Source: Pseudomonadota bacterium
Lineage (GTDB): Bacteria; Pseudomonadota; Alphaproteobacteria; Rickettsiales; RGZB01
Length of the DNA stretch: 64,000 nucleotides
Direction of reading: 5' to 3'
Assembly (NCBI GenBank): GCA_010031735.1
Contig: RGZB01000001.1
Location: 86,411 to 150,410 of the forward strand
Positions 3,355 through 64,000 of the stretch are shown one piece after another. Position 1 is the stretch's first letter; each line of letters starts with the position of its first letter. The notes beneath the pieces were generated by a model that was not told the DNA's origin, did no database searches, and was given only the letters and a program-made list of their open reading frames with translations. Both the position numbers and the translations under genes were made by a program.

Positions 3355-3374
3355 ATTACTACCTCAGAAACACC

Positions 3375-3408
3375 AAACCCGACCGCCCCTCATGGGACGG
3401 CCGGGTTT
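3375..3408. terminator. bidirectional hairpin terminator shared by pyrB (+) and cassette C1 (-)
   Basis: AAACCCGaCCGcCCC-tcat-GGGaCGGcCGGGTTT. On the minus-sense RNA it is followed by GGUGUUUCUGAGG, the conserved cassette tail. Confidence 0.6.
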
Positions 3409-3448
3409 GAAATGTACCAATTACCCCTACACTAACTAACAGGTCTGC

Positions 3449-3703
3449 TCAGCCCATGTTGGCTTGGGTGAGGGTTTCGACGATGAGCCTCATCATGATG
3501 GCGGGAATCGGGGTCTCGCACTGCACAGCCCCCTGCGTCCCGTCGAACTTGCTGACCGGGAACTGCATCTTCTCGCCCTTCTCCATCACCATCGAGCCGA
3601 CCTTGATGTCTTCGAGCGCTTCGATCTCGACTGACCCGGAAACGAGTTGGATCTTGAACGGGAGTGCGACTTCGACATGGATCACGAACGTTTGCGTAGC
3701 CAC
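3449..3703 (-). CDS. hypothetical small protein, GC3-rich cassette C1 (family A, paralog of 11787-12161)
   Basis: 84 aa, GTG start preceded by GAGGG. Nearly all codons end in G/C. N-terminus ..FVIHVEVALPFKIQLVSGSV.. resembles ..IYTIEVELPFDLTVSRSTV.. of C6. Confidence 0.65.
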   Translation of the reverse strand: MATQTFVIHVEVALPFKIQLVSGSVEIEALEDIKVGSMVMEKGEKMQFPVSKFDGTQGAVQCETPIPAIMMRLIVETLTQANMG

Positions 3704-3741
3704 GACAGTACCCTCGGAGTTTGGTCGTGATGCGCGAAGAC

Positions 3742-3764
3742 GAATCCCGCAGGATTGTTCCTTG
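3742..3764 (-). promoter_or_regulatory. conserved leader RNA hairpin (CAAGGAAC-AAUCC-UGCG-GGAUU) in C1 5' leader
   Basis: Same motif in the C6 leader (12210-12234). Two stem positions differ by compensatory changes (A-U/A-U versus G-C/U-A). Confidence 0.45.
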
Positions 3765-3869
3765 TCTTGGCATCACACTTTCGGATGAGTGAATATCCTT
3801 TTCACTCTACGTGCATAGGCATGCATGGTTGGACGCCATGGATACTTTACGCACGAGTTAGTTGTATCC

Positions 3870-3901
3870 ACTATAGCAGAAACAGGTGAATAACTGGTTA
3901 A
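3870..3901 (-). promoter_or_regulatory. putative promoter of C1: TTAACC-N20-TATAGT
   Basis: Gene-sense TTAACCagttattcacctgtttctgcTATAGT, directly abutting the terminator tail of C2. Confidence 0.45.
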
Positions 3902-3914
3902 TACCCCCCTAAAA

Positions 3915-3958
3915 ACACGAAAACCTTCCACCCCAGCTAGGGTGGAAGGTTCGCGTGT
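3915..3958 (-). terminator. intrinsic terminator of cassette C2 (conserved module)
   Basis: Gene-sense ACACGCGAACCTTCCACCC-tagctg-GGGTGGAAGGTTTTCGTGT + TTTTAGGGG. 19-bp stem with 1 mismatch. The stem is nearly identical to 10068-10115. Confidence 0.75.
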
Positions 3959-3988
3959 GTCCCGGTTTACGCTCCGGAACTAATCTCC

Positions 3989-4336
3989 TCAGTCGTCGAA
4001 CGGATCCGCGATGTCGAGGCCCGCACGTGCGGCCTCGTCCTCGAGCAGCATGTCGCCGTAGGCCTCGCCGTAGGGCTTCGGCTCGACCAGCTTGATCTCC
4101 ATGAACGGCACCATCTTCCAGTCCTGAGACGCGTTCTGCCGCATCATGATGTCGTAGGTCCGGTTGTACTCGATCTGGACGGGCTTGCCCTTGGACAGCT
4201 CGAACGGCGTCGCCTCGAGGTCTTCCAGCAGTGAGATGCGTAATGCGACTTGCACTTCGCCCTGCTTGTTTTCTGCCGTGGGGAACTCGCCGACGCTTGC
4301 AACGAACCTAATCCCGAACAGGGTGAACGAAAACAT
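3989..4336 (-). CDS. hypothetical small protein, GC3-rich cassette C2
   Basis: 115 aa, ATG with GGAG upstream, strongly G/C-ending codons, acidic C-terminus ..LDIADPFDD. Confidence 0.7.
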   Translation of the reverse strand: MFSFTLFGIRFVASVGEFPTAENKQGEVQVALRISLLEDLEATPFELSKGKPVQIEYNRTYDIMMRQNASQDWKMVPFMEIKLVEPKPYGEAYGDMLLEDEAARAGLDIADPFDD

Positions 4337-4504
4337 GACCCGAACTCCGAATGTGGGGATTGCAGACGAATCACACCATCCTTGGGGTGATTCGCACTGC
4401 GGGGTGGGGTACTAAGGAACATCCTTGCACCTTACTTGCTTTCCATGTGTGGGGTGATTTTTAAAACCGCACCGCACATTTCCAGACAAGAACCAACTGT
4501 CCCC

Positions 4505-4536
4505 ATGGTATCAAACCCATGTTAACAAAATCTTAA
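4505..4536 (-). promoter_or_regulatory. putative promoter of C2 with perfect TTAA-N7-TTAAC box
   Basis: Gene-sense TTAAgattttgTTAAC (4536->4521). The first half-site TTAAGA lies N20 from TACCAT. Confidence 0.45.
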
Positions 4537-4573
4537 ATTTGTAATTTTTGATGTAGATTTTTAGTTTATACGA

Positions 4574-4608
4574 GAGCCCTCCCCCACCCGACGGGTGGAG
4601 GAAGGCTC
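4574..4608 (-). terminator. intrinsic terminator of cassette C3
   Basis: Gene-sense GAGCCTTCCTCCACCC-gtcg-GGTGGGGGAGGGCTC followed by TCGTATAAAC. Confidence 0.65.
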
Positions 4609-4651
4609 GCGCTTCTGGCTTTACGTTAGGTGCCAGGAACCTCTATCACAC

Positions 4652-4945
4652 TCAGCTCTGGCTGGCGCGCTCCTGCGCGGCGAACTCCGCCGCGTGCTCG
4701 CTGACGCTCTCGACCTCTTCGTCGGCCGGGAGCGGGAAGGCCGGGGCCCACTCTTCCGGGTCCCCGAGCCAGCTGCCACCGGAGTGGCCGTTGTGCTCGT
4801 GGTCCCAGCGGGCCTTCTGGTTGGTGAACTCCGCCTCGAACTTCGGCAGGTCGGCGATCGGGGCCTCGATCTTGTACGGGGCCTTGGCCAACAGCACCCA
4901 CACGTTGACCTTCTCGCCCTTGACCACGATGTGTTGGATCTTCAT
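4652..4945 (-). CDS. hypothetical small protein, GC3-rich cassette C3
   Basis: 97 aa. By hand count 93 of 97 sense codons end in G/C (Lys AAG, Glu GAG). Two other long ORFs over the same DNA are R/G/P-rich shadow frames. Confidence 0.75.
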   Translation of the reverse strand: MKIQHIVVKGEKVNVWVLLAKAPYKIEAPIADLPKFEAEFTNQKARWDHEHNGHSGGSWLGDPEEWAPAFPLPADEEVESVSEHAAEFAAQERASQS

Positions 4946-5136
4946 CGGAACCTGAGCCTCGAACTGGTGTGATGCGCAGCATGACTCCCCCGTTTTACAA
5001 ACACGGTTGGAGTCTTACTGCACGCGGTAGTCACGAAAGCGCCGTTGCTCCCGTGACGTGTACTTTGCCCGACGATCCTCTGCTGCACCGGTGTTGGTTG
5101 TGGTGCTGGCGGAGAATACTGATGTCGGACTAGATC

Positions 5137-5168
5137 AAACTATCTCTAGGATAGCAAATAATGGTTAA
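5137..5168 (-). promoter_or_regulatory. putative promoter of C3: TTAACCAT..-N20-TAGTTT
   Basis: Gene-sense TTAACCATtatttgctatcctagagaTAGTTT. Exact TTAACCAT 8-mer. Confidence 0.45.
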
Positions 5169-5196
5169 TTTTTTATTAGCGTTGCACACTTTTTAT

Positions 5197-5228
5197 TTAA
5201 CCATTTATTAAGCATTTAGACATATAAT
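5197..5228 (+). promoter_or_regulatory. putative promoter of the 515-aa P-loop gene: TTAACCAT..-N20-TATAAT
   Basis: TTAACCatttattaagcatttagacaTATAAT, then a 25-nt leader with TAAGGA before the ATG at 5254. Divergent from the C3 promoter. Confidence 0.55.
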
Positions 5229-5253: not shown

Positions 5254-6801
5254 ATGCGCCCGATTTACGAGCCATCAACCGACCTACTCTATTCCGGCCA
5301 TTTTGAGCGGGCGGATCTGGTCGCGCTCGGGAATGCGCTTGGGGTCAGCAACATCAAAGTCATCACCCAGGCAACGCTTGAACCGGACCGGGTATTCTAT
5401 CACGCGTGCATCAATCGGGTGCTCATCAACGTCAAACTGAAGCATCTGGATGAAAGCGAACGTTCGGTTGAAATCGCAGATCTTGCAGAGCGCGTTTACC
5501 GTGACAGGCAGCCGCTTTTTTTCTCTGAATTGTTGAAAAGAGATACCGAGTTAAGAACAAAATTGAATGGCATCGATGTGTTCTGTAATACGCTTGATCA
5601 GATGGCGCCCGACCCATGGGATAAAGCTGCGTTCGACCAACTGTGTGGTGCAGAAAAGGTGCCACAGCGCTGGCAACAGAAAGCCATCGAAACCTACCGC
5701 ACCATCCGTGAACGCATCGCGACAGGAGAATATACTCCGCGGGAGGAAGAAGATGCCCTCTCGCTTACCATCTATTGGGCGCAGCGAAACGTTGAATATA
5801 AACACTACAGGACCATCGCGCGTGAAGCGGTGGAATCTTATCTGGAGAAAACCATCGGTAAAGAAGAGCGTCTTGCCGTACAGCCCGCCAAGGGTCGCAT
5901 CACCACCATGGTCATCGGCGGGTATGGCAGCGGCAAAAGCACCATCTCCAACTGGCTACTCGCACAGATGGGAGATGAAGAGCGTCAGAATACAGGCATC
6001 CATGATGCGGATACCGCGAAGATTGCACTTCTGAGAAAAGCCATCCTGGATAGAATATTGCCTCCTGATCATCCGACCACGGGTTTCGCCGTGCAGAACG
6101 AATCCTCCAATATCAATTACGAAATCACGAGAGAGAGGGCATATCTTGCCGAACATGCTGGCTTTGTGCCCAGGGTCATTATCAATAGCCCGATCTTAGG
6201 TACAACCGAAATGAATGAGGCCCTTGCAGGTGGTGGCAAATTGGTGGGACACCATCTCTTCATGACTATCCCGGAGGCGGTTGGCGAATCCAAACTCCGC
6301 GCAGCACGCATCGGACGTATGCCAGAGGAAGCGGATATCCACTGGTCTACCGTCGCTTCAGCGAAAAGTATCCTAGGCCTTACGGATAGCACGTATCGTG
6401 GCAAAGAGATCACCCTGCATCTCTACAACCGTGAACAGCAGAAAGCACCTAAGCATTATGGCGTGATCGATGTCGCAAATGCCGTCTTTTACATCCATGA
6501 CCTGAATGCTTTAGCCAGCACTGCAGAGATGACGGATGAATCCATCTCGCGTCCGGAGGCACTTCATCGTTTCCTTAAAAAATTCAATGACGCAGGTTTC
6601 ACTATCGCCCTTGCCAAGGCAGAGGAACTCGACAATCCCGTCGCTGTAATTAAGGCGGATAAGAAACTTGAAATCGCGAACCGTGCTGACTTTGTTGCTT
6701 ACGGCGATTTGCGCGCTGAAGTGACTAAGCTTTCTGCCCATACACAATTCAGTGATATCGTGCTGAACCAACCGAAGCCGACAGGCGCGATAAGGATGTA
6801 A
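5254..6801 (+). CDS. hypothetical P-loop NTPase/kinase (zeta-toxin-like Walker A)
   Basis: 515 aa. Walker A MVIGGYGSGKST near residue 220. No other family assignment possible by eye. Confidence 0.7.
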   Translation: MRPIYEPSTDLLYSGHFERADLVALGNALGVSNIKVITQATLEPDRVFYHACINRVLINVKLKHLDESERSVEIADLAERVYRDRQPLFFSELLKRDTELRTKLNGIDVFCNTLDQMAPDPWDKAAFDQLCGAEKVPQRWQQKAIETYRTIRERIATGEYTPREEEDALSLTIYWAQRNVEYKHYRTIAREAVESYLEKTIGKEERLAVQPAKGRITTMVIGGYGSGKSTISNWLLAQMGDEERQNTGIHDADTAKIALLRKAILDRILPPDHPTTGFAVQNESSNINYEITRERAYLAEHAGFVPRVIINSPILGTTEMNEALAGGGKLVGHHLFMTIPEAVGESKLRAARIGRMPEEADIHWSTVASAKSILGLTDSTYRGKEITLHLYNREQQKAPKHYGVIDVANAVFYIHDLNALASTAEMTDESISRPEALHRFLKKFNDAGFTIALAKAEELDNPVAVIKADKKLEIANRADFVAYGDLRAEVTKLSAHTQFSDIVLNQPKPTGAIRM

Positions 6802-9525: not shown

Positions 9526-10008
9526 CTATTCCTTACTCTGCGCCACCATCTTCAGGATATATTTTCTAAAATCCGGATCTTCACCGACGAGTAATTTCGG
9601 CAGCGCTTTTCTGAAATCCTCACGCTTCACCCAGAAAATAATGTAGTCTTCCCAGGTGCTCCACAGACGCTTTTGGTGTGGCGGCATCTTCTCTTCATAG
9701 ACAAGGATGTATGCTTGTTCGAATAAGGAAATCAGCAGATCGAAGATGATGAGTTTCCTCTCAATTTGTTCATTCGTCAGCTTTCGCTTCGAACTGTTTT
9801 TTGAAAACAGGCGAAGATCGGAATTCTCAAGAAGGATTTCCTGGAAATCGGAATATTGGTCAGCGAGGCGTTGATACACCTCCTCCTCTTCGTTCTGACG
9901 TTCCTTACGGTAATCGGAAATGAAAATAATGATGGCGAAGGGTAAACCGATCACGGTTACCACATAGCTGAGCAACTCCCACGTCTCTATATCAGTAAAA
10001 TCCATCAT
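9526..10008 (-). CDS. hypothetical membrane-anchored protein (160 aa)
   Basis: N-terminal TM helix LLSYVVTVIGLPFAIIIFI. AT-rich codon usage. The -10-like TAGTAT lies 6 nt from the ATG (leaderless geometry). Confidence 0.65.
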   Translation of the reverse strand: MMDFTDIETWELLSYVVTVIGLPFAIIIFISDYRKERQNEEEEVYQRLADQYSDFQEILLENSDLRLFSKNSSKRKLTNEQIERKLIIFDLLISLFEQAYILVYEEKMPPHQKRLWSTWEDYIIFWVKREDFRKALPKLLVGEDPDFRKYILKMVAQSKE

Positions 10009-10014
10009 GCTCAG

Positions 10015-10046
10015 ATACTAAGTGAAAATGGTGAAGAAAAGGTTAA
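10015..10046 (-). promoter_or_regulatory. putative promoter of 160-aa/370-aa operon: TTAACC-N20-TAGTAT
   Basis: Gene-sense TTAACCttttcttcaccattttcactTAGTATctgagcATG. Aligns with the C1 promoter (shared TTAACC..TTCACC..TTTC). Confidence 0.5.
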
Positions 10047-10067
10047 TGCCCTGCTTTATACCCTAAA

Positions 10068-10115
10068 ACACGAAAACCTTCCACCGCCCCGAAGGGTAGT
10101 GGAAGGTTCGCGTGT
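10068..10115 (-). terminator. intrinsic terminator of cassette C4 (conserved module)
   Basis: Gene-sense ACACGCGAACCTTCCAC-tacccttcggggcg-GTGGAAGGTTTTCGTGT + TTTAGGGTAT. Same stem as 3915-3958 but a different loop. Confidence 0.75.
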
Positions 10116-10144
10116 GCCCTGACTTACGATGCCAGGGCTAGGTA

Positions 10145-10711
10145 CTACGGCTTCGGCAACTCGAAGCCGAACTCGTCGTCCTCATCGGTCGGAGGGGCGG
10201 CGGGCGGCGGCGGCGGCGGCAATTCAAACACCACCTCCTGCTCGCCTGGCCAGTCTTTCAACTCGAACCAGCCCTCGTCGTCCTCCTGCGGCGGCACCGC
10301 CTTTGCCACCTCACCCAACCCGGAAAGCTTACCGAACTCGGTGAGGGCTTTGGAGATGTCCTCGCCCACGGCCGCCAACGCAATGGCAGTTGGCGGCAGC
10401 TCCCAGCAATCGTTGTCATCCACGACGACTGGCCCGGTGACCGGCGGACCGATCACCAAGTGCTCACCCGTGGGCAGCCCGCTCCCGGGGAACACCGAGT
10501 TCAGGATATTCCGGGCGCGGCGCGTAGCGCGCAGGTGACGCACCACCTCCGTCGCCTCGAACTCCTCGCGGGTGAAGGGCGTCAACTTCACGCCGACCGC
10601 CGTGAGGATGGCCTTCGCGGTGGCCCCGTTCATGTCACCGTAGTTTTTCGTGGCGCCGTTCTTGGACGGCTTGGTGAACACGAGCCCGGCGGTCAGGATG
10701 CGCTTCTGCAT
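10145..10711 (-). CDS. hypothetical protein, GC3-rich cassette C4 (family B, paralog of 11059-11487)
   Basis: 188 aa from the ATG at 10711 (GAGGT upstream). The ORF-track start at 10870 runs into the AT-richer leader. KP..K..TKNYG..G motif is shared with C5. Pro/Asp/Glu-rich C-terminus. Confidence 0.65.
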   Translation of the reverse strand: MQKRILTAGLVFTKPSKNGATKNYGDMNGATAKAILTAVGVKLTPFTREEFEATEVVRHLRATRRARNILNSVFPGSGLPTGEHLVIGPPVTGPVVVDDNDCWELPPTAIALAAVGEDISKALTEFGKLSGLGEVAKAVPPQEDDEGWFELKDWPGEQEVVFELPPPPPPAAPPTDEDDEFGFELPKP

Positions 10712-10939
10712 GGGACTAGTACCTCGCCATTTCTCCCATCCCCTGTTTTTAATTGTTAGGGGGACGCGGATAGTGGCACATGTAGGGATTGGTGGAGGAA
10801 ATTTGTGAAACCCTTTCCACTTAGGGTTATGCAAAACTGTAGGCTCGAACCGTAGCAAAACCAAAAACAATGCCCACAGTCAAACACCGAACCAAACTTA
10901 CATAACACCAACTTAACATCCCCAGTATGACTGAACGAT

Positions 10940-10972
10940 ATTACAAAAATATTACCCCTGACCCATGGTTAA
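10940..10972 (-). promoter_or_regulatory. putative promoter of C4: TTAACCAT..-N21-TGTAAT
   Basis: Gene-sense TTAACCATgggtcaggggtaatattttTGTAAT. Exact TTAACCAT 8-mer immediately after the C5 terminator tail. Confidence 0.4.
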
Positions 10973-10988
10973 TAGCGCCTATAAACAC

Positions 10989-11022
10989 GAAACCCCGCCC
11001 CCACTAAAGGGGACAGGGTCTC
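10989..11022 (-). terminator. intrinsic terminator of cassette C5
   Basis: Gene-sense GAGACCCTGTCCCC-tttagt-GGGGGCGGGGTTTC + GTGTTTATAGG (G-U pairs valid only in the minus-sense RNA). Confidence 0.7.
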
Positions 11023-11058
11023 ATGCGCCTGACTCACGCCAGGTCTTTAGGTATCAGG

Positions 11059-11487
11059 TCACTGCGGCGTCTCTACCGGGTAGCCCCCGAAGTTGTCGGT
11101 TTTCGTGACCCCGCCCTTCTCCTTAGGCGGCGCTTCGCCCAGCTCCTTCAGCAGATCGAACGGCTCGTCTTCCGGGGTCAGCTTCACCGCCTCACCCAGC
11201 CCATCGATCTCCGGAACAGCAGGCAGGAACTCCAGCACCGTCGTCCCGCCCTCGTTGCTACCCTGCGGCGCATCGTAGGGCGGCTCCATCGGCCACTCGA
11301 ACACCTCGTCGTTCCAGTCGTGCATGTCGAGCGGCGGGCGCTTGTACGGCCACAGCCCGGCCTTCTTCAGCGCCTGCTGCGCCTTGAACCCGCTCACCGG
11401 CCCGTAGTTCTTCGTCCAGCTCTTGCGCCCCGGCTTGTAGTAGCTGTCCGGGTGCTTCACCGACGTCAACAAAAGAGACGCGCGCAT
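11059..11487 (-). CDS. hypothetical protein, GC3-rich cassette C5 (family B)
   Basis: 142 aa from the ATG at 11487 (MRASLLLTSVKHPDSYYKPGRKSWTKNYGPVSG..). Start chosen by alignment with C4. G/C-ending codons. Confidence 0.65.
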   Translation of the reverse strand: MRASLLLTSVKHPDSYYKPGRKSWTKNYGPVSGFKAQQALKKAGLWPYKRPPLDMHDWNDEVFEWPMEPPYDAPQGSNEGGTTVLEFLPAVPEIDGLGEAVKLTPEDEPFDLLKELGEAPPKEKGGVTKTDNFGGYPVETPQ

Positions 11488-11668
11488 AACCCAATACCTC
11501 ACCACAACTTCCACCATCCTAATTTTTAGGCGGGAGCAGTGGCACACAAGCTGGTGAAGTAATTATTATGACCCCTCTTCACCAAATGGGTCCTTCGACA
11601 ACCGCGATTACGTTAGTACGTAGCCACGGGTTATATTCCATCAAAAGACAGCCAACGAAAGAGCCACC

Positions 11669-11700
11669 AGTATATCGCTGGAATATTGCAGTTTGGTTAC
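11669..11700 (-). promoter_or_regulatory. putative promoter of C5: GTAACC-N20-TATACT
   Basis: Gene-sense GTAACCaaactgcaatattccagcgaTATACT. Confidence 0.4.
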
Positions 11701-11728
11701 GTCTTAAAAAGCTAATAAACAGCTATAA

Positions 11729-11770
11729 AACACAAGACCCCCGCCGCAGATGCGACGAGGGTCTTGTGTT
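11729..11770 (-). terminator. intrinsic terminator of cassette C6
   Basis: Gene-sense AACACAAGACCCTCG-tcgcatctgc-GGCGGGGGTCTTGTGTT + TTATAGC. Confidence 0.7.
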
Positions 11771-11786
11771 GTTAATTGTGCTTACT

Positions 11787-12161
11787 CTACTCGCCAGAGC
11801 CCCCTTGCGCCGGGGGGTCGCCCTTGTAGGCGTCGTCGTGAACGTCCGTCGGCCACGGCGGCATACCGTTCATCCCGCCGCACAGATTCGTCAACACTTT
11901 CGGCATCACGCTCTTCGCCGCCGCCTTCACGATCTTGGCCGCGATGATCGTGCTGCCCGCGCCGTCCCCGACCACTTCGATCGAGATCTTCCCGTCCAGC
12001 ACCTGCGCGAGGCTCACTTCCGCCGACTGACCCTTTTTGAGCGGGTGGCACTTGCCGCCGCCCAGCACGTTCAGAGGCACGTGCGCACAGATGGTGACGG
12101 TGCTGCGCGACACCGTGAGATCGAACGGCAGTTCGACCTCAATCGTGTAAATGGTTCCCAT
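11787..12161 (-). CDS. hypothetical small protein, GC3-rich cassette C6 (family A)
   Basis: 124 aa. Strong SD AGGAGGG 6 nt before the ATG. G/C-ending codons. N-terminus similar to C1. Confidence 0.75.
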   Translation of the reverse strand: MGTIYTIEVELPFDLTVSRSTVTICAHVPLNVLGGGKCHPLKKGQSAEVSLAQVLDGKISIEVVGDGAGSTIIAAKIVKAAAKSVMPKVLTNLCGGMNGMPPWPTDVHDDAYKGDPPAQGGSGE

Positions 12162-12209
12162 ATTCGCTCCCTCCTAAAGAAGCGTAGTGGGTTCCTGATG
12201 ACGACAGCC

Positions 12210-12234
12210 GGTTCCCGCAGGAACGTTCCTTGGC
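12210..12234 (-). promoter_or_regulatory. conserved leader RNA hairpin (CAAGGAAC-GUUCC-UGCG-GGAAC) in C6 5' leader
   Basis: Counterpart of 3742-3764, with compensatory stem changes. Confidence 0.45.
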
Positions 12235-12454
12235 TTTGTCATCGTAATTCGTGGGGTAAGGAATCCATTACCTTACCTGCTGCCTAACACCGATGAGTTA
12301 CATCGGGGTCCAAAACAGCAAGACAAACCATAGGCAGGATAAAGGTAAATTATGACGGAGATATGACGCACCACTGTGAAAAGCCGAAAGTATGGCATAA
12401 AATAGCCATACTTGGCAGTCCATCTTATTGCCATTACCGCTATATTTCAGTTAC

Positions 12455-12487
12455 TAAGTATTACACCATCGTTAACGGGTCGTTAAC
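12455..12487 (-). promoter_or_regulatory. putative promoter of C6 with perfect TTAA-N7-TTAAC box
   Basis: GTTAACgggtcGTTAAC reads as TTAA-N7-TTAAC on both strands (12472-12487). The gene-sense upstream TTAACG lies N20 from TACTTA. Confidence 0.45.
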
Positions 12488-12497
12488 TCATCTGTAA

Positions 12498-12517
12498 CAT
12501 GTTCCACGTGGAACATG
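12498..12517. repeat. perfect 20-bp palindrome CATGTTCCACGTGGAACATG
   Basis: Read directly. Lies between the C7 terminator and the C6 TTAAC box. Confidence 0.9.
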
Positions 12518-12521
12518 GCAG

Positions 12522-12537
12522 GATACGCTAGCGTATC
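12522..12537. repeat. perfect 16-bp palindrome GATACGCTAGCGTATC
   Basis: Read directly. 4 nt from the 20-bp palindrome, with imperfect GGCA/TGCC extension. Confidence 0.9.
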
Positions 12538-12569
12538 TGCCGTAATAGACATTCTATTCGCCCCAAAAA

Positions 12570-12609
12570 GCAAAAGGGAGAGAGGTTTGCAGTCCCTCTC
12601 TCCCTTTGC
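12570..12609 (-). terminator. intrinsic terminator of cassette C7
   Basis: Gene-sense GCAAAGGGAGAGAGG-gactgcaaa-CCTCTCTCCCTTTTGC + TTTTTGGGG. Confidence 0.7.
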
Positions 12610-12654
12610 CGCCCCGTATAATAGATAATAAAATGGGGCTTCATTCTTCCATGA

Positions 12655-12954
12655 TCAGCCGACGGTGTCCCCGTCGTTCGGCCACTGGTAGTCGGCGTTC
12701 CCGCTCACCCAGTCGATCACCGCCGACGCGCCCACGCCCATGTCCTCGTTCTCGAACTCCTTGTCCTCGGCCATCGCCCGCGCGGCCTCGTGCCCGATGG
12801 CCGCGTACTTGGCCTGCAGGGCGAGGTCGGCACCGTCCACGGCCTTGTCGTCCGGGTCGTCCTTGATCTTGGTCACGGTCTTGGTGGCCGGCTGGACCTC
12901 GAAGAAATCGTCCGCGCCGCCGTCGTCGTCGTTCCGCCGATTCCGAGCGCTCAT
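12655..12954 (-). CDS. hypothetical acidic small protein, GC3-rich cassette C7
   Basis: 99 aa from the ATG at 12954 (GGAG 9 nt upstream). The ORF-track TTG at 12990 is also possible. G/C-ending codons. Confidence 0.6.
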   Translation of the reverse strand: MSARNRRNDDDGGADDFFEVQPATKTVTKIKDDPDDKAVDGADLALQAKYAAIGHEAARAMAEDKEFENEDMGVGASAVIDWVSGNADYQWPNDGDTVG

Positions 12955-13138
12955 GGCTGCTTTCTCCGCTTTCGGTAATCCCTTACGCAACTTGGGATGT
13001 CAACCGAAGCACGTGTGTGGTGAGGGTCTAGAACTCGATCTTCGAACTCTGCTATCTACCCTTCTCACCTTAGGGTCATGTATCAGTCCTCGGTTGCGAC
13101 ACGAGAGACTGGTTATATGCACCAAGAAATACCCCTTT

Positions 13139-13170
13139 AATATGCCCGAATACTGTTACAAATATGTTAA
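13139..13170 (-). promoter_or_regulatory. putative promoter of C7: TTAACA-N20-CATATT
   Basis: Gene-sense TTAAcatatttGTAACagtattcgggCATATT (TTAA-N7-gTAAC, one mismatch to the full box). Confidence 0.4.
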
Positions 13171-13272
13171 AATCAGTCGATTAGGGGCTAAAATACTGAA
13201 AGTTGCGTTAATCACTGGAAATCCACCAAAAATTTGCTATGGTACGCACGACTCACGATACAGGTTTATGCC

Positions 13273-18704: not shown

Positions 18705-18730
18705 TACCACTTCTGCCACCAGGCATAAAA

Positions 18731-20389: not shown

Positions 20390-20674
20390 ATTCCCCCATC
20401 AAATTGGTAAAACCAACCCAGAGCTTACGATACAATAAACTTGTTAAAACTACGTTAAACAATGAAAAGTTCAGGCTCTTTATACATAACTGCTTTGCTA
20501 AAAAAAGGAAAATTAACGAATTCGTAAGCCTAAAAATGGCCTTGTAACACAATCGGCTAAACTGTTGCATTTATGCAACAATCATTTTGGAGGGTTTTGG
20601 GGTTTACTGTTGCAGATATGGGGCTGATTCGGTAGGTTTACCCCCTTCCTTAAGCGCTAATACGAGTTTTACCC

Positions 20675-21560: not shown

Positions 21561-22319
21561 ATGACGGAGTGGTTCCACAAGATTGAATACGAGATCAACG
21601 GCTCCGATATTCAGTTTGTGGAGATATTCCTCGACCCCGAAGAAACCGTCATTGCCGAATCCGGCACCATGATGTTCATGCAATCGGGCATCCAGTTCGA
21701 TACAAGGATGACCGACGGTAGTGCCAAGAACTCCGGTTTCGTCGGTGGGCTAATCAGCCTGGCCAAGCGCAAGCTCACCGGTGAGAATCTTTTCCTCACA
21801 TTTTATACAAATACCAGCGATGCGGTTCGTAGCGTCGCGTTTGCTCCTGCTTATCCCGGTACGATCGTTCCGATCGACCTTGCCGAGATGGGAGGTAAGA
21901 TCCTCTGCCAGAAGCGGGCCTTCTTATGTGCCGCCAAGGGTATCTCGATCGATGTCGGCATCACCAAAAAACTCTCGACCGGCTTCTTCGGCGGGGATGG
22001 GTTTATTTTGCAAAAACTCTCGGGCGATGGGCTTGCTTTTATCCATGCCGGAGGCACCGTTACCCGCCGTACTTTAGAGGACGGAGAGATCATGTATGTC
22101 GATACCGGTAGTTTGGTGGCCATGCAGCCATCTGTCCAATTTGAAATCAATTTCGTAAGCGGAATCAATAGCTTATTTTTTGGCGGCGAAGGGATGTTTT
22201 TAACTAGACTCACCGGTCCAGGCCATGTTTGGGTGCAATCCATGCCCTATTCCCGCTATATAAACAGCATCGCCTATGCGATCGCGAATCAGCCGGCGGT
22301 CGATACCAAGGATAAGTAG
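21561..22319 (+). CDS. TIGR00266/AIM24-family protein
   Basis: 252 aa. ..GGDGFILQKLSGDGLAFIHAGG.. repeat pattern typical of the AIM24 family. Confidence 0.75.
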   Translation: MTEWFHKIEYEINGSDIQFVEIFLDPEETVIAESGTMMFMQSGIQFDTRMTDGSAKNSGFVGGLISLAKRKLTGENLFLTFYTNTSDAVRSVAFAPAYPGTIVPIDLAEMGGKILCQKRAFLCAAKGISIDVGITKKLSTGFFGGDGFILQKLSGDGLAFIHAGGTVTRRTLEDGEIMYVDTGSLVAMQPSVQFEINFVSGINSLFFGGEGMFLTRLTGPGHVWVQSMPYSRYINSIAYAIANQPAVDTKDK

Positions 22320-22331
22320 CCTTCAAATGCC

Positions 22332-22367
22332 GACGGGGGTAGTGGTATAACCCACTTACCCCCCGTC
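22332..22367. terminator. hairpin shared by 21561-22319 (+) and cassette C8 (-)
   Basis: GACGGGGGTAGTGG-tataac-CCACTTACCCCCCGTC (two bulges). No clear U-tract on either side. Confidence 0.45.
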
Positions 22368-22394: not shown

Positions 22395-22520
22395 TTACTT
22401 CTTCTTGTGGCCCGCGAACTGGTTGGCCGGGATCTTGTGCTGCCGCCGCGCGCGCTTGAGGGCCTTGCTGTTGCCCTTGGCCTTGGCGGACTCCGTCTTG
22501 CCGTGCTGGATCTTGCGCAT
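22395..22520 (-). CDS. hypothetical 41-aa highly basic peptide, GC3-rich cassette C8
   Basis: MRKIQHGKTESAKAKGNSKALKRARRQHKIPANQFAGHKKK. Every Lys is AAG and most codons end in G/C. Below the ORF-track cutoff. The opposite-strand ORF 22407-22601 looks like a shadow frame. Confidence 0.45.
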   Translation of the reverse strand: MRKIQHGKTESAKAKGNSKALKRARRQHKIPANQFAGHKKK

Positions 22521-44418: not shown

Positions 44419-44450
44419 TTAACGAGCCATTAACCATTCTTCTTTATACT
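44419..44450 (+). promoter_or_regulatory. putative promoter of the 424-aa gene with perfect TTAA-N7-TTAAC(CAT) box
   Basis: TTAAcgagccaTTAACCAT. The upstream TTAACG lies N20 from TATACT. The -10 ends 9 nt before the ATG at 44460 (near-leaderless). Confidence 0.5.
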
Positions 44451-48561: not shown

Positions 48562-48594
48562 ATAGTACTGCGCAATCCTTAAATTTTCGTTAAC
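48562..48594 (-). promoter_or_regulatory. putative promoter of the 305/344/J-domain operon with TTAA-N7-TTAAC box
   Basis: The plus strand reads TTAAattttcgTTAAC (48579-48594). Gene-sense TTAACG-N20-TACTAT. Confidence 0.45.
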
Positions 48595-50563: not shown

Positions 50564-50872
50564 TTACTCGAGGTCAGAGCCCTCGAGCTCCGGAGTCGTC
50601 CGGAATTTGATCTTCTTGCCGCCGATCACGATCTTGAACTCGTCGCGCGTTACGGTGACTACTTGCGTCACCTCATCAGCCCACGCGACCGACTCCATCT
50701 CGTTGCCATCGACGAGCATCACGACCTCTTTGTTCTTGGTCGTGATGAAAAACTTGGTTTTCGGGTTCTCCCAGAACTGGGATGGGCGGATATGAACTTT
50801 CTTACCCTGTTTGCCCCGCCCCTTGACATCATCACCTTCGATGATGATGCCGTCGGGAAGTTCGATTCGCAT
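50564..50872 (-). CDS. hypothetical small protein, cassette C9
   Basis: 102 aa. Strong SD AAGGAGGG. Codons mostly G/C-ending but less extreme than C1-C7. Confidence 0.7.
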   Translation of the reverse strand: MRIELPDGIIIEGDDVKGRGKQGKKVHIRPSQFWENPKTKFFITTKNKEVVMLVDGNEMESVAWADEVTQVVTVTRDEFKIVIGGKKIKFRTTPELEGSDLE

Positions 50873-53904: not shown

Positions 53905-54052
53905 AGTTTCCCTGTCAAAATGGTGGTTGGCGCTTTTCACCGCTGTACGGCTCGGGACTACTTCCTAACGAATCTCTGTCCAAAAATAAAGTGAAATGTT
54001 TGTTTTCCGCGAGACTTTCTCTCTATCCGGCCAGGCATATACCCCCAAACGA

Positions 54053-54080
54053 AAAACGGCGGGTCAAAGCCCGCCGTTTT
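54053..54080 (-). terminator. intrinsic terminator of the phasin gene
   Basis: AAAACGGCGGG-tcaaag-CCCGCCGTTTT. Confidence 0.8.
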
Positions 54081-54104
54081 CGATTACTTCAGCTTATCCG
54101 CCGA

Positions 54105-57989: not shown

Positions 57990-58292
57990 ATGGTTACGAT
58001 CCACATGTTCACAGCAGAGCTCGCAGCTCTCGAACACGGGCAAACGGTTACGAAGGGCAGCGTCACGATCAGCCTCGAAAACGTGCCGAACACCACGACG
58101 ATCAAGCTCAACGAGCAGCAGTTCGCAGATTTGACGCTGAGCACAAACGTCGAGGTGGCAGGGTACAAGCTGATCGCGCCGGACAAGAAGAAGGCTCCGC
58201 ACGACCCGATCATCGGTAAGATGCTCCCAGCGCAGGGCGAACCCATGGATAACCCGCCGATCGATGGCGCGGGTAACCCGGGCTGGCTGTGA
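57990..58292 (+). CDS. hypothetical small protein, GC3-rich cassette C10
   Basis: 100 aa, GGAG upstream, G/C-ending codons. The two antisense ORFs over the same DNA look like shadow frames. Confidence 0.65.
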   Translation: MVTIHMFTAELAALEHGQTVTKGSVTISLENVPNTTTIKLNEQQFADLTLSTNVEVAGYKLIAPDKKKAPHDPIIGKMLPAQGEPMDNPPIDGAGNPGWL

Positions 58293-58395: not shown

Positions 58396-58626
58396 TTAAA
58401 GCTTGGTGATTTTGTTTTTGCGGTTCGCGATCAGGTCGAACACGCGTTGCACCACATAATTCACCACCAGGATAATAGCCGCCAGCGCGATGGCATAAAG
58501 CGCCGTGATAATCGTAAGCGCTGCAAAAAGATACAGCACCCCGATAAATATCACCAGCAGGCATACCCCTTTAAGCGTGATCGGCATACGTTTACCTGTG
58601 ACAACGAAACGCACGGACTCTTTCAT
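58396..58626 (-). CDS. hypothetical small membrane protein (76 aa, 2 TM)
   Basis: ATG immediately follows the uvrA stop. Host-like codon usage. Two hydrophobic helices. Confidence 0.55.
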   Translation of the reverse strand: MKESVRFVVTGKRMPITLKGVCLLVIFIGVLYLFAALTIITALYAIALAAIILVVNYVVQRVFDLIANRKNKITKL

Positions 58627-62688: not shown

Positions 62689-62698
62689 TTAATAATTA

Positions 62699-62715
62699 TC
62701 ATTATATATCAATAT
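62699..62715. repeat. second copy of 17-nt block TCATTATATATCAATAT
   Basis: Identical to 57819-57835. Confidence 0.85.
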
Positions 62716-62725
62716 ATTATATCGT

Positions 62726-62769
62726 TTAACATATATTTAACATTATTTTATTGTTATTTATGGCATAGT
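62726..62769 (+). promoter_or_regulatory. putative promoter of C11 with perfect TTAA-N7-TTAAC box
   Basis: TTAAcatatatTTAAC (62726-62741), then TTAACA-N21-CATAGT. The 26-nt block CGTTTAACATATATTTAACATTATTT recurs at 63453-63478 (25/26 identical). Confidence 0.5.
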
Positions 62770-62978
62770 GTCTTTGCATTTTACCACACGTGGTTTCAGA
62801 ACAGGGTCCGTTCTCTTTTTATTCTTCCCCCAACCAAAACAACACACGGGAAGATACGCTGCAGCAAAGCCATACCAGGACAACGATCTCCATGAGAGAT
62901 TTACCGGTATACGTAGGCTAGCTGAAGTAGAGAGAATCGATCCTGTTGCTGAAACCACTTCGGAAAGCGAGGTGGAAA

Positions 62979-63374
62979 ATGCAGACCATGATCCTGTTGG
63001 GCGGCAAGTTGACGATCCAGGCCTGCGAGTTGGAGAACGCCTTCGGCCTCATCGTCAACGGTGAGACGCGGAGCGTCAGCAAGTACCCGCACCCGCACGT
63101 GCCGACGCCGAAGGAGATCGACGCGGCGGTGCAGACGGCGATCGACTTCCTGATCAGCCAGGGCTACGACATCACGATGCCGCTGCCGGTCGAGGAGATC
63201 ACGCCGCTCGACGAGGTGCTGGACGCCATCCCGGTGGACAGCGACGTGATGCTGGTCCCCGACGACGACGTGATCGACCTGGGCAAGGAGCTGCTCGAGG
63301 GCGGCACGACCGAGGAGAAGCCGGACGACAACGAGATGTTCGGGGGCTACAAGCACCCCTGGGACAACGAGTAA
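62979..63374 (+). CDS. hypothetical acidic protein, GC3-rich cassette C11
   Basis: 131 aa from the ATG at 62979 (GAGGTGG SD). The ORF-track TTG at 62946 lies in the lower-GC leader. G/C-ending codons. Confidence 0.7.
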   Translation: MQTMILLGGKLTIQACELENAFGLIVNGETRSVSKYPHPHVPTPKEIDAAVQTAIDFLISQGYDITMPLPVEEITPLDEVLDAIPVDSDVMLVPDDDVIDLGKELLEGGTTEEKPDDNEMFGGYKHPWDNE

Positions 63375-63395
63375 CAACTGACTGAGTGACCTACA

Positions 63396-63427
63396 GAGGG
63401 CTTCGTGGATTAAACCACGAGGCCCTC
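63396..63427 (+). terminator. intrinsic terminator of cassette C11
   Basis: GAGGGCtTCGTGG-attaaa-CCACGAgGCCCTC + GCCTTTTCTAGGGTAT. The pre-stem ACCTACAG is shared with 63933-63940. Confidence 0.7.
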
Positions 63428-63455
63428 GCCTTTTCTAGGGTATCTCCACCTACGT

Positions 63456-63498
63456 TTCACATATATTTAACATTATTTCCCTGTGATTTATATATAAT
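63456..63498 (+). promoter_or_regulatory. putative promoter of C12: TTcA-N7-TTAAC, TTAACA-N20-TATAAT
   Basis: TTAACAttatttccctgtgatttataTATAAT. One mismatch to the full box. Confidence 0.5.
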
Positions 63499-63631
63499 GA
63501 AGGCTCGTCCATACCGTTAGGTTACAGAGCCCAGAACATCCGGTTCTTCCAGAGAATCCCAAAAGCCAGTCAGAAACTGTGCTCCGGGTGCTATGGATCT
63601 GTGCCTACCAACACGAAGGGTTGGTGTCGAG

Positions 63632-63886
63632 ATGGTGATGGTGTACGGCTGGAGCTGGTGGATGTACCTGCTGGTGTTCCCGTTCTTCTACAAGCAGTAC
63701 TGGGTGAAGATGGCGGGCGGGAAGTGGTGTACGGTGGAGAAGTTCGTTCGCGCCTACCCGCACGAGCAGCCCTGCATCTGCAAGAAGATCGGCAACCTGT
63801 GGGTGATCACCGACGTGTTCTACCTGAACAAGCAGCACCAGGTGGTGAAGTTCCACCACGAGCCGCCGCTGATGATCGACGACTGA
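63632..63886 (+). CDS. hypothetical Trp/aromatic-rich small membrane protein, GC3-rich cassette C12
   Basis: 84 aa from the ATG at 63632 (MVMVYGWSWWMYLLVFPFFYKQYW..). The 13 codons upstream of it (ORF-track start 63593) are not GC3-rich, so the exact start is uncertain. Confidence 0.55.
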   Translation: MVMVYGWSWWMYLLVFPFFYKQYWVKMAGGKWCTVEKFVRAYPHEQPCICKKIGNLWVITDVFYLNKQHQVVKFHHEPPLMIDD

Positions 63887-63939
63887 CAGATTCCCTACTC
63901 TGAACACGACAGAGTCTAAAAAAATGTGGAGAACCTACA

Positions 63940-63968
63940 GGGGGCGTCGTGCGAAAGCACGGGCCCCC
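63940..63968 (+). terminator. intrinsic terminator of cassette C12
   Basis: GGGGGCgtCGTGC-gaaa-GCACGgGCCCCC + GACATTTTTTAGGGTGTG. Confidence 0.7.
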
Positions 63969-64000
63969 GACATTTTTTAGGGTGTGCAATGCACCATCAT

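Follow-up and report, generated by a model that had tools for sequence, protein, structure and literature searches.

The DNA considered here, called the window, is a 64-kb segment of a bacterial chromosome with a G+C content of about 52%, belonging to an uncultured Rickettsiales-like bacterium. The element in question is a 3'-terminal module, a G+C-rich hairpin generally followed by a U-rich tract in the transcript, which lies behind small orphan genes. These modules are probably homologous copies of a strong, strand-specific Rho-independent terminator in a multigene family of autonomous single-gene cassettes. Twelve cassette units, numbered C1 to C12, were recognised in the window by scanning the open reading frames (ORFs) for deviant third-position composition and by reading their flanks. 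A thirteenth, C13, is located just past the right end of the window, on an independent metagenome contig (L048) from the same population. Orphan genes of this kind, small and self-contained, number at least 13; they are inserted among core genes, and each is most likely closed by a copy of one terminator. From 5' to 3', a cassette is made up of a CtrA-box-like promoter, a leader of 90–240 nt, the orphan ORF and the hairpin.

The hairpins of C2 (3915–3958) and C4 (10068–10115), both on the minus strand, have identical 17-nt arms and differ in the apex alone, which reads CCCTAGCTGGG in C2 and TACCCTTCGGGGCG in C4. An earlier note on this DNA had described near-identical stems with different loops at these two loci, and all the sequences it quoted were found in their places. 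The C2 hairpin is formed by ACACGCGAACCTTCCACCC and TGGGGTGGAAGGTTTTCGTGT around a TAGC loop, with the tail TTTTTAGGGGGG at 3903–3914, and has a folding energy of −33.8 kcal/mol (z-score −6.8). In C4, a mini-stem with a UUCG cap lengthens the apex above the arms shared with C2; the tail is TTTTAGGGTAT (−32.3 kcal/mol, z-score −5.6). There are exactly four copies of GTGGAAGGTTYKCGTGT, one for each arm of these two hairpins; with up to three mismatches allowed, there are five occurrences, where 0.49 are expected, and none of 100 shuffled sequences reaches five.

The tail is similarly concentrated. Four copies of YGTGTTTWWWRG are present, where 0.17 are expected, and every one is located at a cassette 3' end, directly after the hairpin (C2, C5, C6 and C10). 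A stem base of the form ACAYGMRA-CC..GG-TYTBGTGT, with a following T-run, is common to six cassettes, and the GTGTTT tail to six of the 12 in the window (C1, C2, C4, C5, C6 and C10). A T-run followed by AGGG is found after the hairpins of C2, C4, C10, C11 and C12, the last two lacking GTGTTT. The tail had been reported across most cassettes; it is real, and eight of the 12 have one form or the other, but C3, C7, C8 and C9 have neither, although C3 and C9 still belong to the hairpin family according to the covariance model described below. The pre-stem ACCTACAGRGGGCKTCGTG common to C11 and C12 is present as described, as are the junctions at which a tail runs on into the next unit, TAGGGGGGTA into TTAACC and ATAGGCGCTA into TTAACCAT. 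In the 3' untranslated regions (UTRs) of C3, C4, C5, C11 and C12, an ACCTA pentamer lies upstream of the terminator (for example at 10136–10141, 11044–11049 and 63390–63395). A helix between this upstream part of the 3' UTR and the AGGG tail, bracketing the module, was considered and set aside, its support being marginal (p about 0.03). A likeness of TTTTAGGG to telomere repeats was dropped as coincidence.

Seven of the hairpins (C1 to C6 and C10) were aligned over 64 columns and the 16 lower base pairs were tested. In these pairs, 92.7% of the cells are paired, six pairs carry changes in both partners, and 500 shuffles produced nothing as good; when the register of the alignment is shifted by one to three columns, only 33–58% pairing is left. 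ACA..UGU at the foot of the stem is near-invariant, as are two C-G pairs; in the upper stem, variation is free but compensated. Cassette hairpins contain 12–21 bp (17–21 bp in type A, to which the modules of C1, C5, C6 and C10 were assigned) at −24 to −37 kcal/mol, compared with 12–17 bp at −18 to −26 kcal/mol for the core-gene terminators, and their folding z-scores range from −5.4 to −7.9. One to five G.U pairs are present in ten of the 12; C7 and C8 have none. The sense strand folds more stably in every cassette hairpin, as in C5, with −34.1 kcal/mol for the sense strand versus −16.3 kcal/mol for the antisense strand. A U-rich tract, interrupted (UUUUCGUGUUUUU), is located 3' of the stem in ten of the 12 cassettes, being absent from C3 and weak in C8, and none of the hairpins has a U-run on the antisense strand. 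The presence of the U-run on the sense strand only, together with the better folding of that strand with its G.U pairs, argues that selection acts on the RNA of the sense strand rather than on double-stranded DNA. The hairpins are most likely RNA-level intrinsic terminators, as predicted from these properties.

A covariance model, R1, was built from the same seven hairpins, which it scores at 43–64 bits (C2, 63.7; C5, 59.5; C4, 57.3; C1, 55.5; C10, 55.4; C6, 49.4; C3, 43.3). It independently recovers the terminator of C9 (50507–50566, minus strand), which had been left out of model building, with 28.3 bits and an E-value of 6.5e-6. Core terminators score at most 17.7 bits and antisense strands far lower. 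All matches in the window lie at the 3' ends of cassette ORFs and in cassette orientation; none is intragenic or stands alone between genes. The covariance and covariation check on cassette 3' ends, which the earlier note had proposed, came out in favour of a common structure in the window. Over about 136 kb from five relatives, R1 finds nothing convincing (best match 16 bits, E-value 0.027). When viral contigs were scanned with the stem or the tail, chance matches only were obtained, without a hairpin. Metagenomes scanned for the conserved base, the apex being left variable, yielded nine matches, at chance level. One of these, with the same base (CACGCGAACC..GGTTTTCGTGT), at 1746–1785 of the unrelated metagenome contig L018 (64% G+C), is an ordinary terminator and was judged coincidental; it follows a 350-aa gene that, by the look of its sequence, is outer-membrane-protein-like. 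None of the core-gene terminators of the window (at 18728, 29632, 39290, 50456 and 54052) has the tail, as the earlier note had stated for four of them; all five are plain hairpins of the A-tract/T-tract kind.

When the cassettes are compared with each other, blocks of DNA are seen to be shared in a reticulate, mosaic manner. By BLAST, their proteins are mostly unrelated, with the exceptions of C4 and C5 and of C11 and C5. Blocks in the 3' module link C2 with C4 (81% identity over 69 nt), C10 with C5, and C11 with C12 (78% over 54 nt); a leader block of 54 nt links C1 with C6 (70% identity, 3715–3768 versus 12183–12236); a block in the promoter region links C11 with C12, C7, C9 and C10; and a block at the end of the ORF links C11 with C5 (70% over 111 nt). 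Read by eye, C4 and C5 are also alike in leader motifs and in their first hairpin. The tandem paralogues C11 and C13 have leaders that are 81% identical and proteins that are 32% identical. Full paralogue pairs are limited to C4/C5, C1/C6 and C11/C13. The promoter of a low-G+C operon at 9526–10008 resembles that of C1. The non-coding blocks of the cassettes are far better conserved than the ORFs. The near-identical terminators of C2 and C4 stand behind unrelated ORFs and leaders, which points to mosaic sharing by recombination or gene conversion, or else to far faster divergence of the ORFs, with the flanks under strong constraint. Common descent, which had been suggested for the units, can be upheld for their terminators, on the strength of the covariance model, the covariation and the block similarity; whole units do not simply go back to one ancestor, full paralogy being limited to some pairs.

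The cassettes are lineage-specific insertions between genes that are adjacent in relatives. Core genes of the window include glnE, bcp, pyrB, pyrC, a tolC-like gene, mlaA, metF, rimP-nusA-infB, pnp, rpoH, uvrA and ssb, and the order glnE-bcp-pyrB-pyrC-tolC-DUF2497-folK-folP-deaminase-mlaC-mlaA-metF-(AIM24)-rimP-nusA-infB is the same in five relatives compared for synteny (contigs L006, L007, L009, L025 and L028). The syntenic segments of these five contain no GC3-rich small ORFs (GC3 being the G+C fraction at third codon positions) and no cassettes. The gap between pyrB and pyrC is 18 nt in L006 and 3.65 kb in the window, where it holds C1 to C3 and a gene for a 515-aa protein; that between pyrC and tolC is 62 nt in L006 and 4.8 kb in the window, where it holds C4 to C7 and two low-G+C genes. 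C8 is located in the interval between AIM24 and rimP. In three cases, the cassette 3' end adjoins the stop codon of a convergent core gene (pyrB at C1, position 22319 at C8 and position 58398 at C10). The nearest relatives by PyrC are uncultured "Rickettsiales" metagenome-assembled genomes with 71–77% identity, none in the protein collection being closer. Metagenome contigs from the same population are collinear with the window and at least 99.9% identical. Neither closer relatives than the 77% PyrC match nor strain variants with cassette differences, which would have allowed the cassette junctions to be mapped, were found in the collections searched.

In the mechanism we propose, RNA polymerase would start at the CtrA-box-type promoter and transcribe the structured leader of 90–240 nt and the small orphan ORF. 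Once 6–52 nt beyond the stop codon have been transcribed, the emerging RNA would fold, often into a small hairpin first and then into the G+C-rich hairpin of 12–21 bp, the 3' arm of which leads into UUUYGUGUUUU, a U-rich stretch. Formation of the G+C-rich upper stem while the U-rich RNA:DNA hybrid is in place would lead to transcript release. The lower stem (ACAYG with CGUGU) may zip up afterwards, so that the 3' end is fully paired except for a few overhanging U and should resist 3' exonucleases. The terminator would insulate the cassette from the core gene that converges on it or from the promoter of the following cassette, 5–26 nt downstream. The 3' modules would have spread with cassette duplication and would have been exchanged through gene conversion or recombination, the most recent copy presumably being that in C2 and C4, with compensatory change maintaining the pairing. 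The cassettes would then resemble one another at their 3' ends because these modules are homologous copies.

Several observations weigh against this interpretation, in which termination is itself a prediction from sequence. The U-tract is interrupted (UUUUCGUGUUUUU), and when the full stem is formed only two to five U are left; the hairpin of C3 has no U-run. The element AGGG(N0-3)TAT lies 3' of the expected release point and is common to two hairpin families with unrelated stems, for which simple terminator function offers no explanation; the T-run with AGGG does exceed the known needs of a terminator. The identity of the C2 and C4 arms, next to unrelated ORFs and leaders, calls for an exchange mechanism, and no enzyme for it was found among the ORFs scanned. 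Finally, the comparison with core genes covers about six of their terminators, within 64 kb of the genome.

The surplus conservation would be accounted for if the stem base and tail were a sequence-specific RNA element, a binding or processing site acting besides or instead of termination. A protein binding the 3' UTR, or an RNase, would then co-regulate the stability of all cassette mRNAs as a post-transcriptional regulon. We regard this as unlikely. The conservation of ACA..UGU and UUUU-AGGG, which exceeds structural need and spans two stem families, is in its favour, as is the small first hairpin with a CGUAA loop recurring in C2 to C5, and the leaders, better conserved than the ORFs and with recurrent hairpin motifs, suggest control at the RNA level. 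However, AGGG would be missing from transcripts terminated in the U-run, no match to Rfam 15 is obtained at the gathering score and only chance-level ones at an E-value of up to 1, and the conservation could be purely historical, several cassettes being paralogous.

It is rather improbable that the module is a recombination or attachment site, similar to attC or to the ends of IS200/IS605 elements, which would fold in single-stranded DNA and serve a recombinase encoded elsewhere in capturing or moving ORF cassettes. Recognition and crossover would then take place at the conserved stem base and the TAGGG tail. The combination of conserved ends and a centre that varies but stays palindromic does recall the architecture of attC. 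The ORFs are orphans of foreign composition between conserved flanks, the cassettes are insertions relative to related genomes, and the homology blocks of both terminator families stop at the T-run with AGGG. The upstream ACCTA, complementary to the TAGG(G)T tail, can pair with TAGG in C4, C5, C11 and C12; over all cassettes, however, the pairing test is marginal (p about 0.03). Pfam scans revealed no integrase, transposase, HUH enzyme or other recombinase domain in 20 accessory or unassigned ORFs of the window, its other long ORFs having been assigned by synteny or left unchecked. The bases of the hairpins read ACAYG / CGTGT or ACCTACAG / TAGGGT, not the RYYYAAC/GTTRRRY cores of attC, and each cassette brings its own promoter and a long leader. 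The units occupy at least six dispersed loci in both orientations, the spacing from the tail to the TTAAC of the next promoter varies from 5 to 26 nt, and flanking direct repeats were not found around them. The G.U pairs and the U-run on the sense strand are, moreover, as expected of RNA. The earlier idea of a recombination or boundary element is therefore unsupported, and identity with integron attC sites was rejected on the missing integrase in the scanned ORFs, the missing cores, the cassettes' own promoters and their location on both strands.

A broader and still more doubtful version of this idea takes both flanks of the cassette as landing pads of an undescribed gene-capture or exchange system, which would swap or load foreign, extremely GC3-rich ORFs into pre-existing, cell-cycle-controlled expression units by means of a recombinase encoded elsewhere or by homologous exchange. 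The 5' pad would be the CtrA-box promoter with the leader, and the 3' pad the hairpin with the ACAYG..CGTGT base and the T-run with AGGG.

Very improbable is a small palindromic mobile repeat of the repetitive extragenic palindrome (REP), miniature inverted-repeat transposable element (MITE), Correia or Rickettsia palindromic element (RPE) kind, which would have landed behind genes and would terminate transcription incidentally. Rickettsiales carry palindromic repeats (RPEs), and the near-identical copies of C2 and C4 behind unrelated ORFs would fit such an origin. Against it, all copies in the 64 kb are at the 3' ends of cassette ORFs and in cassette orientation; apart from that one pair, they are highly diverged with compensatory changes; neither terminal inverted repeats nor target duplications were found around them; and the module is absent from the segments of the five relatives. 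A REP or MITE identity was rejected, as R1 matches in the window only at cassette 3' ends and flanking direct repeats were not found. That the module is just the ordinary terminator style of the species, which the earlier note had named as the outcome that would refute its reading, is hardly credible on the available data, given that five A-tract/T-tract core terminators reach at most 17.7 bits versus 43–64 for the modelled cassette hairpins and that the sole, faint resemblance to the tail is the end of the phasin-gene terminator at 54052–54081, TTTTTCGTTTGGGGG.

The cassettes are dispersed over at least six loci on both strands. The first array, C3-C2-C1, is located on the minus strand between pyrB and pyrC (3358–5180), with ORFs at 4652–4945, 3989–4336 and 3449–3703, respectively. 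The second, C7-C6-C5-C4, is also on the minus strand, between pyrC and the tolC-like gene (10055–13172), with ORFs at 12655–12954, 11787–12161, 11059–11487 and 10145–10711. Three cassettes are solitary: C8 (22310–22745, minus strand, ORF 22395–22520), between AIM24 and rimP, C9 (50495–51050, minus strand, ORF 50564–50872) and C10 (57805–58394, plus strand, ORF 57990–58292). C11 and C12 form a plus-strand array at the right end of the window (62690–64000; ORFs 62979–63374 and 63593/63632–63886), which is followed by C13, extending from window positions 63987–64000 into positions 540–1018 of L048 and with a GC3 of 0.89. As C13 is next to C12 and is a paralogue of C11, this array continues past the window and holds tandem paralogues. 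Generally, the promoter part is A+T-rich, with TTAAC(C/A) 20 nt upstream of a TATAGT-like hexamer; the leader has 45–56% G+C; the ORF encodes 41–188 aa, with GGAG or GAGG before the start; and the hairpin, in all 12 cassettes of the window, is co-oriented with the ORF and starts 6–52 nt past its stop codon. Six units have a small first hairpin ahead of the terminator hairpin, in C2 to C5 one with the CGUAA loop. A reading of these CGTAA loops as polyadenylation-like signals was dropped as coincidence.

Among the remaining modules, those of type A are found in C1 (3361–3418, minus strand, tail GTGTTTCTGAGG), with its end about 14 nt away from the pyrB stop codon; in C5 (10976–11031, minus strand, tail GTGTTTATAGGCG), with a stem of 18 bp containing five G.U pairs; in C6 (11721–11774, minus strand, tail GTGTTTTATAGC); and in C10 (58340–58394, plus strand, tail GTGTTTTTAGGGC), 5 nt short of the stop codon, at 58398, of a convergent gene. 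The C3 hairpin (4559–4619, minus strand) has a stem homologous to those of C2 and C4 (GAGCCTTCCTCCACCC) and no U-run after it. C11 and C12 constitute a second hairpin family, type B, with ACCTACAGRGGGCKTCGTG and TTTTYTAGGGTRT in common. The C11 terminator (63390–63443, plus strand) consists of ACCTACAGAGGGCTTCGTGG..CCACGAGGCCCTC with the tail GCCTTTTCTAGGGTAT, and that of C12 (63934–63986, plus strand) of ACCTACAGGGGGCGTCGTGC and GCACGGGCCCCC around a GAAA loop, with the tail GACATTTTTTAGGGTGTG. The hairpins of C7 and C8 are singletons. The former (12573–12607, minus strand) is a different hairpin with the tail TTTTGCTTTTTGGGG; the latter (22320–22358, minus strand) is terminator-like, with a weak U-run, and abuts the stop codon at 22319.

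The promoter of C1 (3866–3901, minus strand) may serve as an example: the CtrA-box-like sequence TTAACCAGTTATTCAC is separated by 10 nt from TATAGT. Equivalent boxes are located at 4521–4536 (C2), 5164–5179 (C3), 10966–10973 (C4), 12471–12486 (C6), 13155–13170 (C7), 62726–62741 (C11) and 63456–63471 (C12), and the same type of box precedes accessory genes at 5197–5212 and 10031–10046. With at most one mismatch, TTAA-N7-TTAAC is found 29 times in the window, where 8.8 occurrences are expected and none of 100 shuffles reaches 29; about half of these sites are at cassette promoters. Perfect boxes are present in C2, C6 and C11, and TTAACCAT octamers in C3, C4 and the gene at 5254. Between the end of the right half-site, near position −24, and the −10-like hexamer there are about 11 nt (by manual count, start sites being inferred from the hexamers). 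The half-site has this same position in CtrA-activated promoters of Rhodobacter and Caulobacter (PMC6180460), and the full or one-mismatch box (TTAA-N7-TTAA or TTAACCAT) over the −35 region is a further likeness to such promoters of the Alphaproteobacteria. CtrA with these motifs is documented in Rickettsiales, for Ehrlichia (PMC9005958). The gene ctrA is not in the window, and no search for it was made. From the boxes and their placement we infer that the cassettes may belong to a CtrA-type regulon.

The accessory loci within the insertions, at 5254–6801 (plus strand) and 9526–10008/8405–9517 (minus strand), are of normal or low G+C and have a cassette-type promoter, TTAACC-N20-TATAAT. Their products have no Pfam match; one is the 515-aa protein, with a P-loop, GGYGSGKST. 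Upstream of C6, at 12461–12543, three overlapping TTAA-N7-TTAAC boxes are found beside a perfect 20-nt palindrome, CATGTTCCACGTGGAACATG (12498–12517), and a second palindrome, GCAGGATACGCTAGCGTATCTGC, a cluster resembling an operator. Perfect TTAA-N7-TTAAC boxes are also found upstream of three non-cassette genes, mlaA (20443–20458), an unassigned gene for a 424-aa protein (44419–44434) and a cytochrome c assembly gene (48579–48594), which are candidate native members of a CtrA regulon. C10 (57808–57855) and C11 (62688–62735) have in common an A+T-rich block upstream of the CtrA-like box. This block holds a match, TATCAATATGTTA, resembling the consensus of integration host factor (IHF), and its copy in C10 extends over the start codon annotated for a divergent 980-aa gene. 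In the leaders, hairpins with A(N)GGA in or near the loop recur (for example at 4337–4440 in C2, 3704–3800 in C1 and 12162–12260 in C6), and the sequence GUGCAAGGAUGUUCC in the C2 leader resembles the CsrA consensus obtained by systematic evolution of ligands by exponential enrichment (SELEX).

The cassette ORFs have pooled GC1, GC2 and GC3 values of 0.61, 0.39 and 0.88, respectively, the GC3 of individual ORFs ranging from 0.75 to 0.98; in core genes, GC3 is about 0.63. Codon preference is reversed for lysine, glutamate, aspartate and glutamine, for instance in the use of AAG (0.89 in cassettes versus 0.40 in core genes), GAG (0.82 versus 0.35) and GAC (0.81 versus 0.33), whereas GC1, GC2 and the composition of the leaders look native. 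High GC3 is kept in diverged tandem paralogues, C11 and C13 both having values of about 0.9 or above. The extreme GC3 fits either an en-bloc import of arrays from a high-G+C donor or a synonymous-site bias that arose in situ. Billion-scale protein searches were performed for two of the ORFs: the C4 protein matched only itself among 5.8e9 protein clusters, and so did the C11 protein in a full phmmer search of 1.84e9 representatives. The cassette proteins gave no match in Pfam or PHROGs, and no similarity to phages or plasmids was seen by tblastn with the proteins or by blastn with both arrays. Most of the products are small and acidic, with isoelectric points (pI) of 4.1–5.9. The C8 peptide (22395–22520, minus strand; GC3 0.98) is different, with 41 aa and a very basic pI of 12. 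Short acidic-aromatic motifs recur at the ends of otherwise unrelated cassette proteins and could represent a common interaction or export signal: DNFGGYP in C5 (11059–11100), EMFGGYKHPW in C11 (63330–63374), ADPFDD in C2 and ADDFFEV in C7. C4 contains an internal repeat of this kind, EDDEGWFEL and DEDDEFGFELP (10157–10192 and 10259–10294). A single-sequence AlphaFold model of C6 was unusable, with a predicted local distance difference test (pLDDT) score of 38.

As a terminator, the hairpin is an ordinary kind of object, and its value is that of a marker for an unusual set of genes: orphans with extreme GC3 in a genome of 52% G+C, the promoters, leaders and terminators of which are better conserved than the proteins. 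The set so marked is a fast-evolving, compositionally aberrant orphan gene family, probably under CtrA control, in an uncultured Rickettsiales-like lineage. If the CtrA reading is true, the family would be an arsenal for particular stages, made up of small acidic proteins that evolve fast and could act as effectors or in conflicts. The gap between synonymous-site and amino-acid composition is an evolutionary puzzle, and another is the retention of high GC3 by tandem paralogues that have diverged. The R1 model and the promoter box together provide a practical means of listing the whole family in the genome.

The cassettes can be compared with several known systems. Integron cassettes with their attC sites, including clusters of attC sites lacking integrases (CALIN), contain small, mostly orphan ORFs, each with an imperfect palindrome that has conserved ends and a variable centre. 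Here too, an orphan ORF is followed by a palindrome with conserved ends, and some of the units are in arrays. However, no IntI was found among the scanned ORFs and there are no R''/R' cores; the units have their own promoters and long leaders, are dispersed in both orientations with variable junction spacing, and have a sense-strand U-run after the hairpin. The PmrA-controlled Icm/Dot substrates of Legionella and Coxiella are effector regulons recognised by a common upstream box. The cassettes are similar to them in comprising many unrelated, lineage-specific small genes with one predicted regulator box at a fixed distance from the −10 hexamer, in what may be a host-associated lineage, but the regulator of those substrates is different and they do not have shared leaders and terminators.

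Phage morons are independent transcription units added between conserved genes (PMC3594210). The cassettes resemble them in their insertion between genes adjacent in relatives, their own predicted promoter and terminator, their deviant base composition and their small cargo without known function. Unlike morons, they are located in a conserved chromosomal backbone with housekeeping flanks, not in a prophage, and are richer in GC3 rather than in A+T; there are at least 13 of them with homologous promoters, leaders and terminators, including tandem paralogues, and no phage homologues were found in the searches described above. The modules themselves are most similar to Rho-independent terminators, with a G+C-rich stem-loop 3' of the gene and a U-run on the transcribed strand only, and more specifically to those with an A-rich 5' flank, where the base of the stem is extended by an upstream A/C-rich segment pairing with the U-rich segment. 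They differ in that their stems are mostly 17–21 bp long, compared with 12–17 bp for core genes, in that the U-tract is broken by CGUG and followed by a conserved AGGG, and in that one sequence family stands behind at least eight unrelated ORFs.

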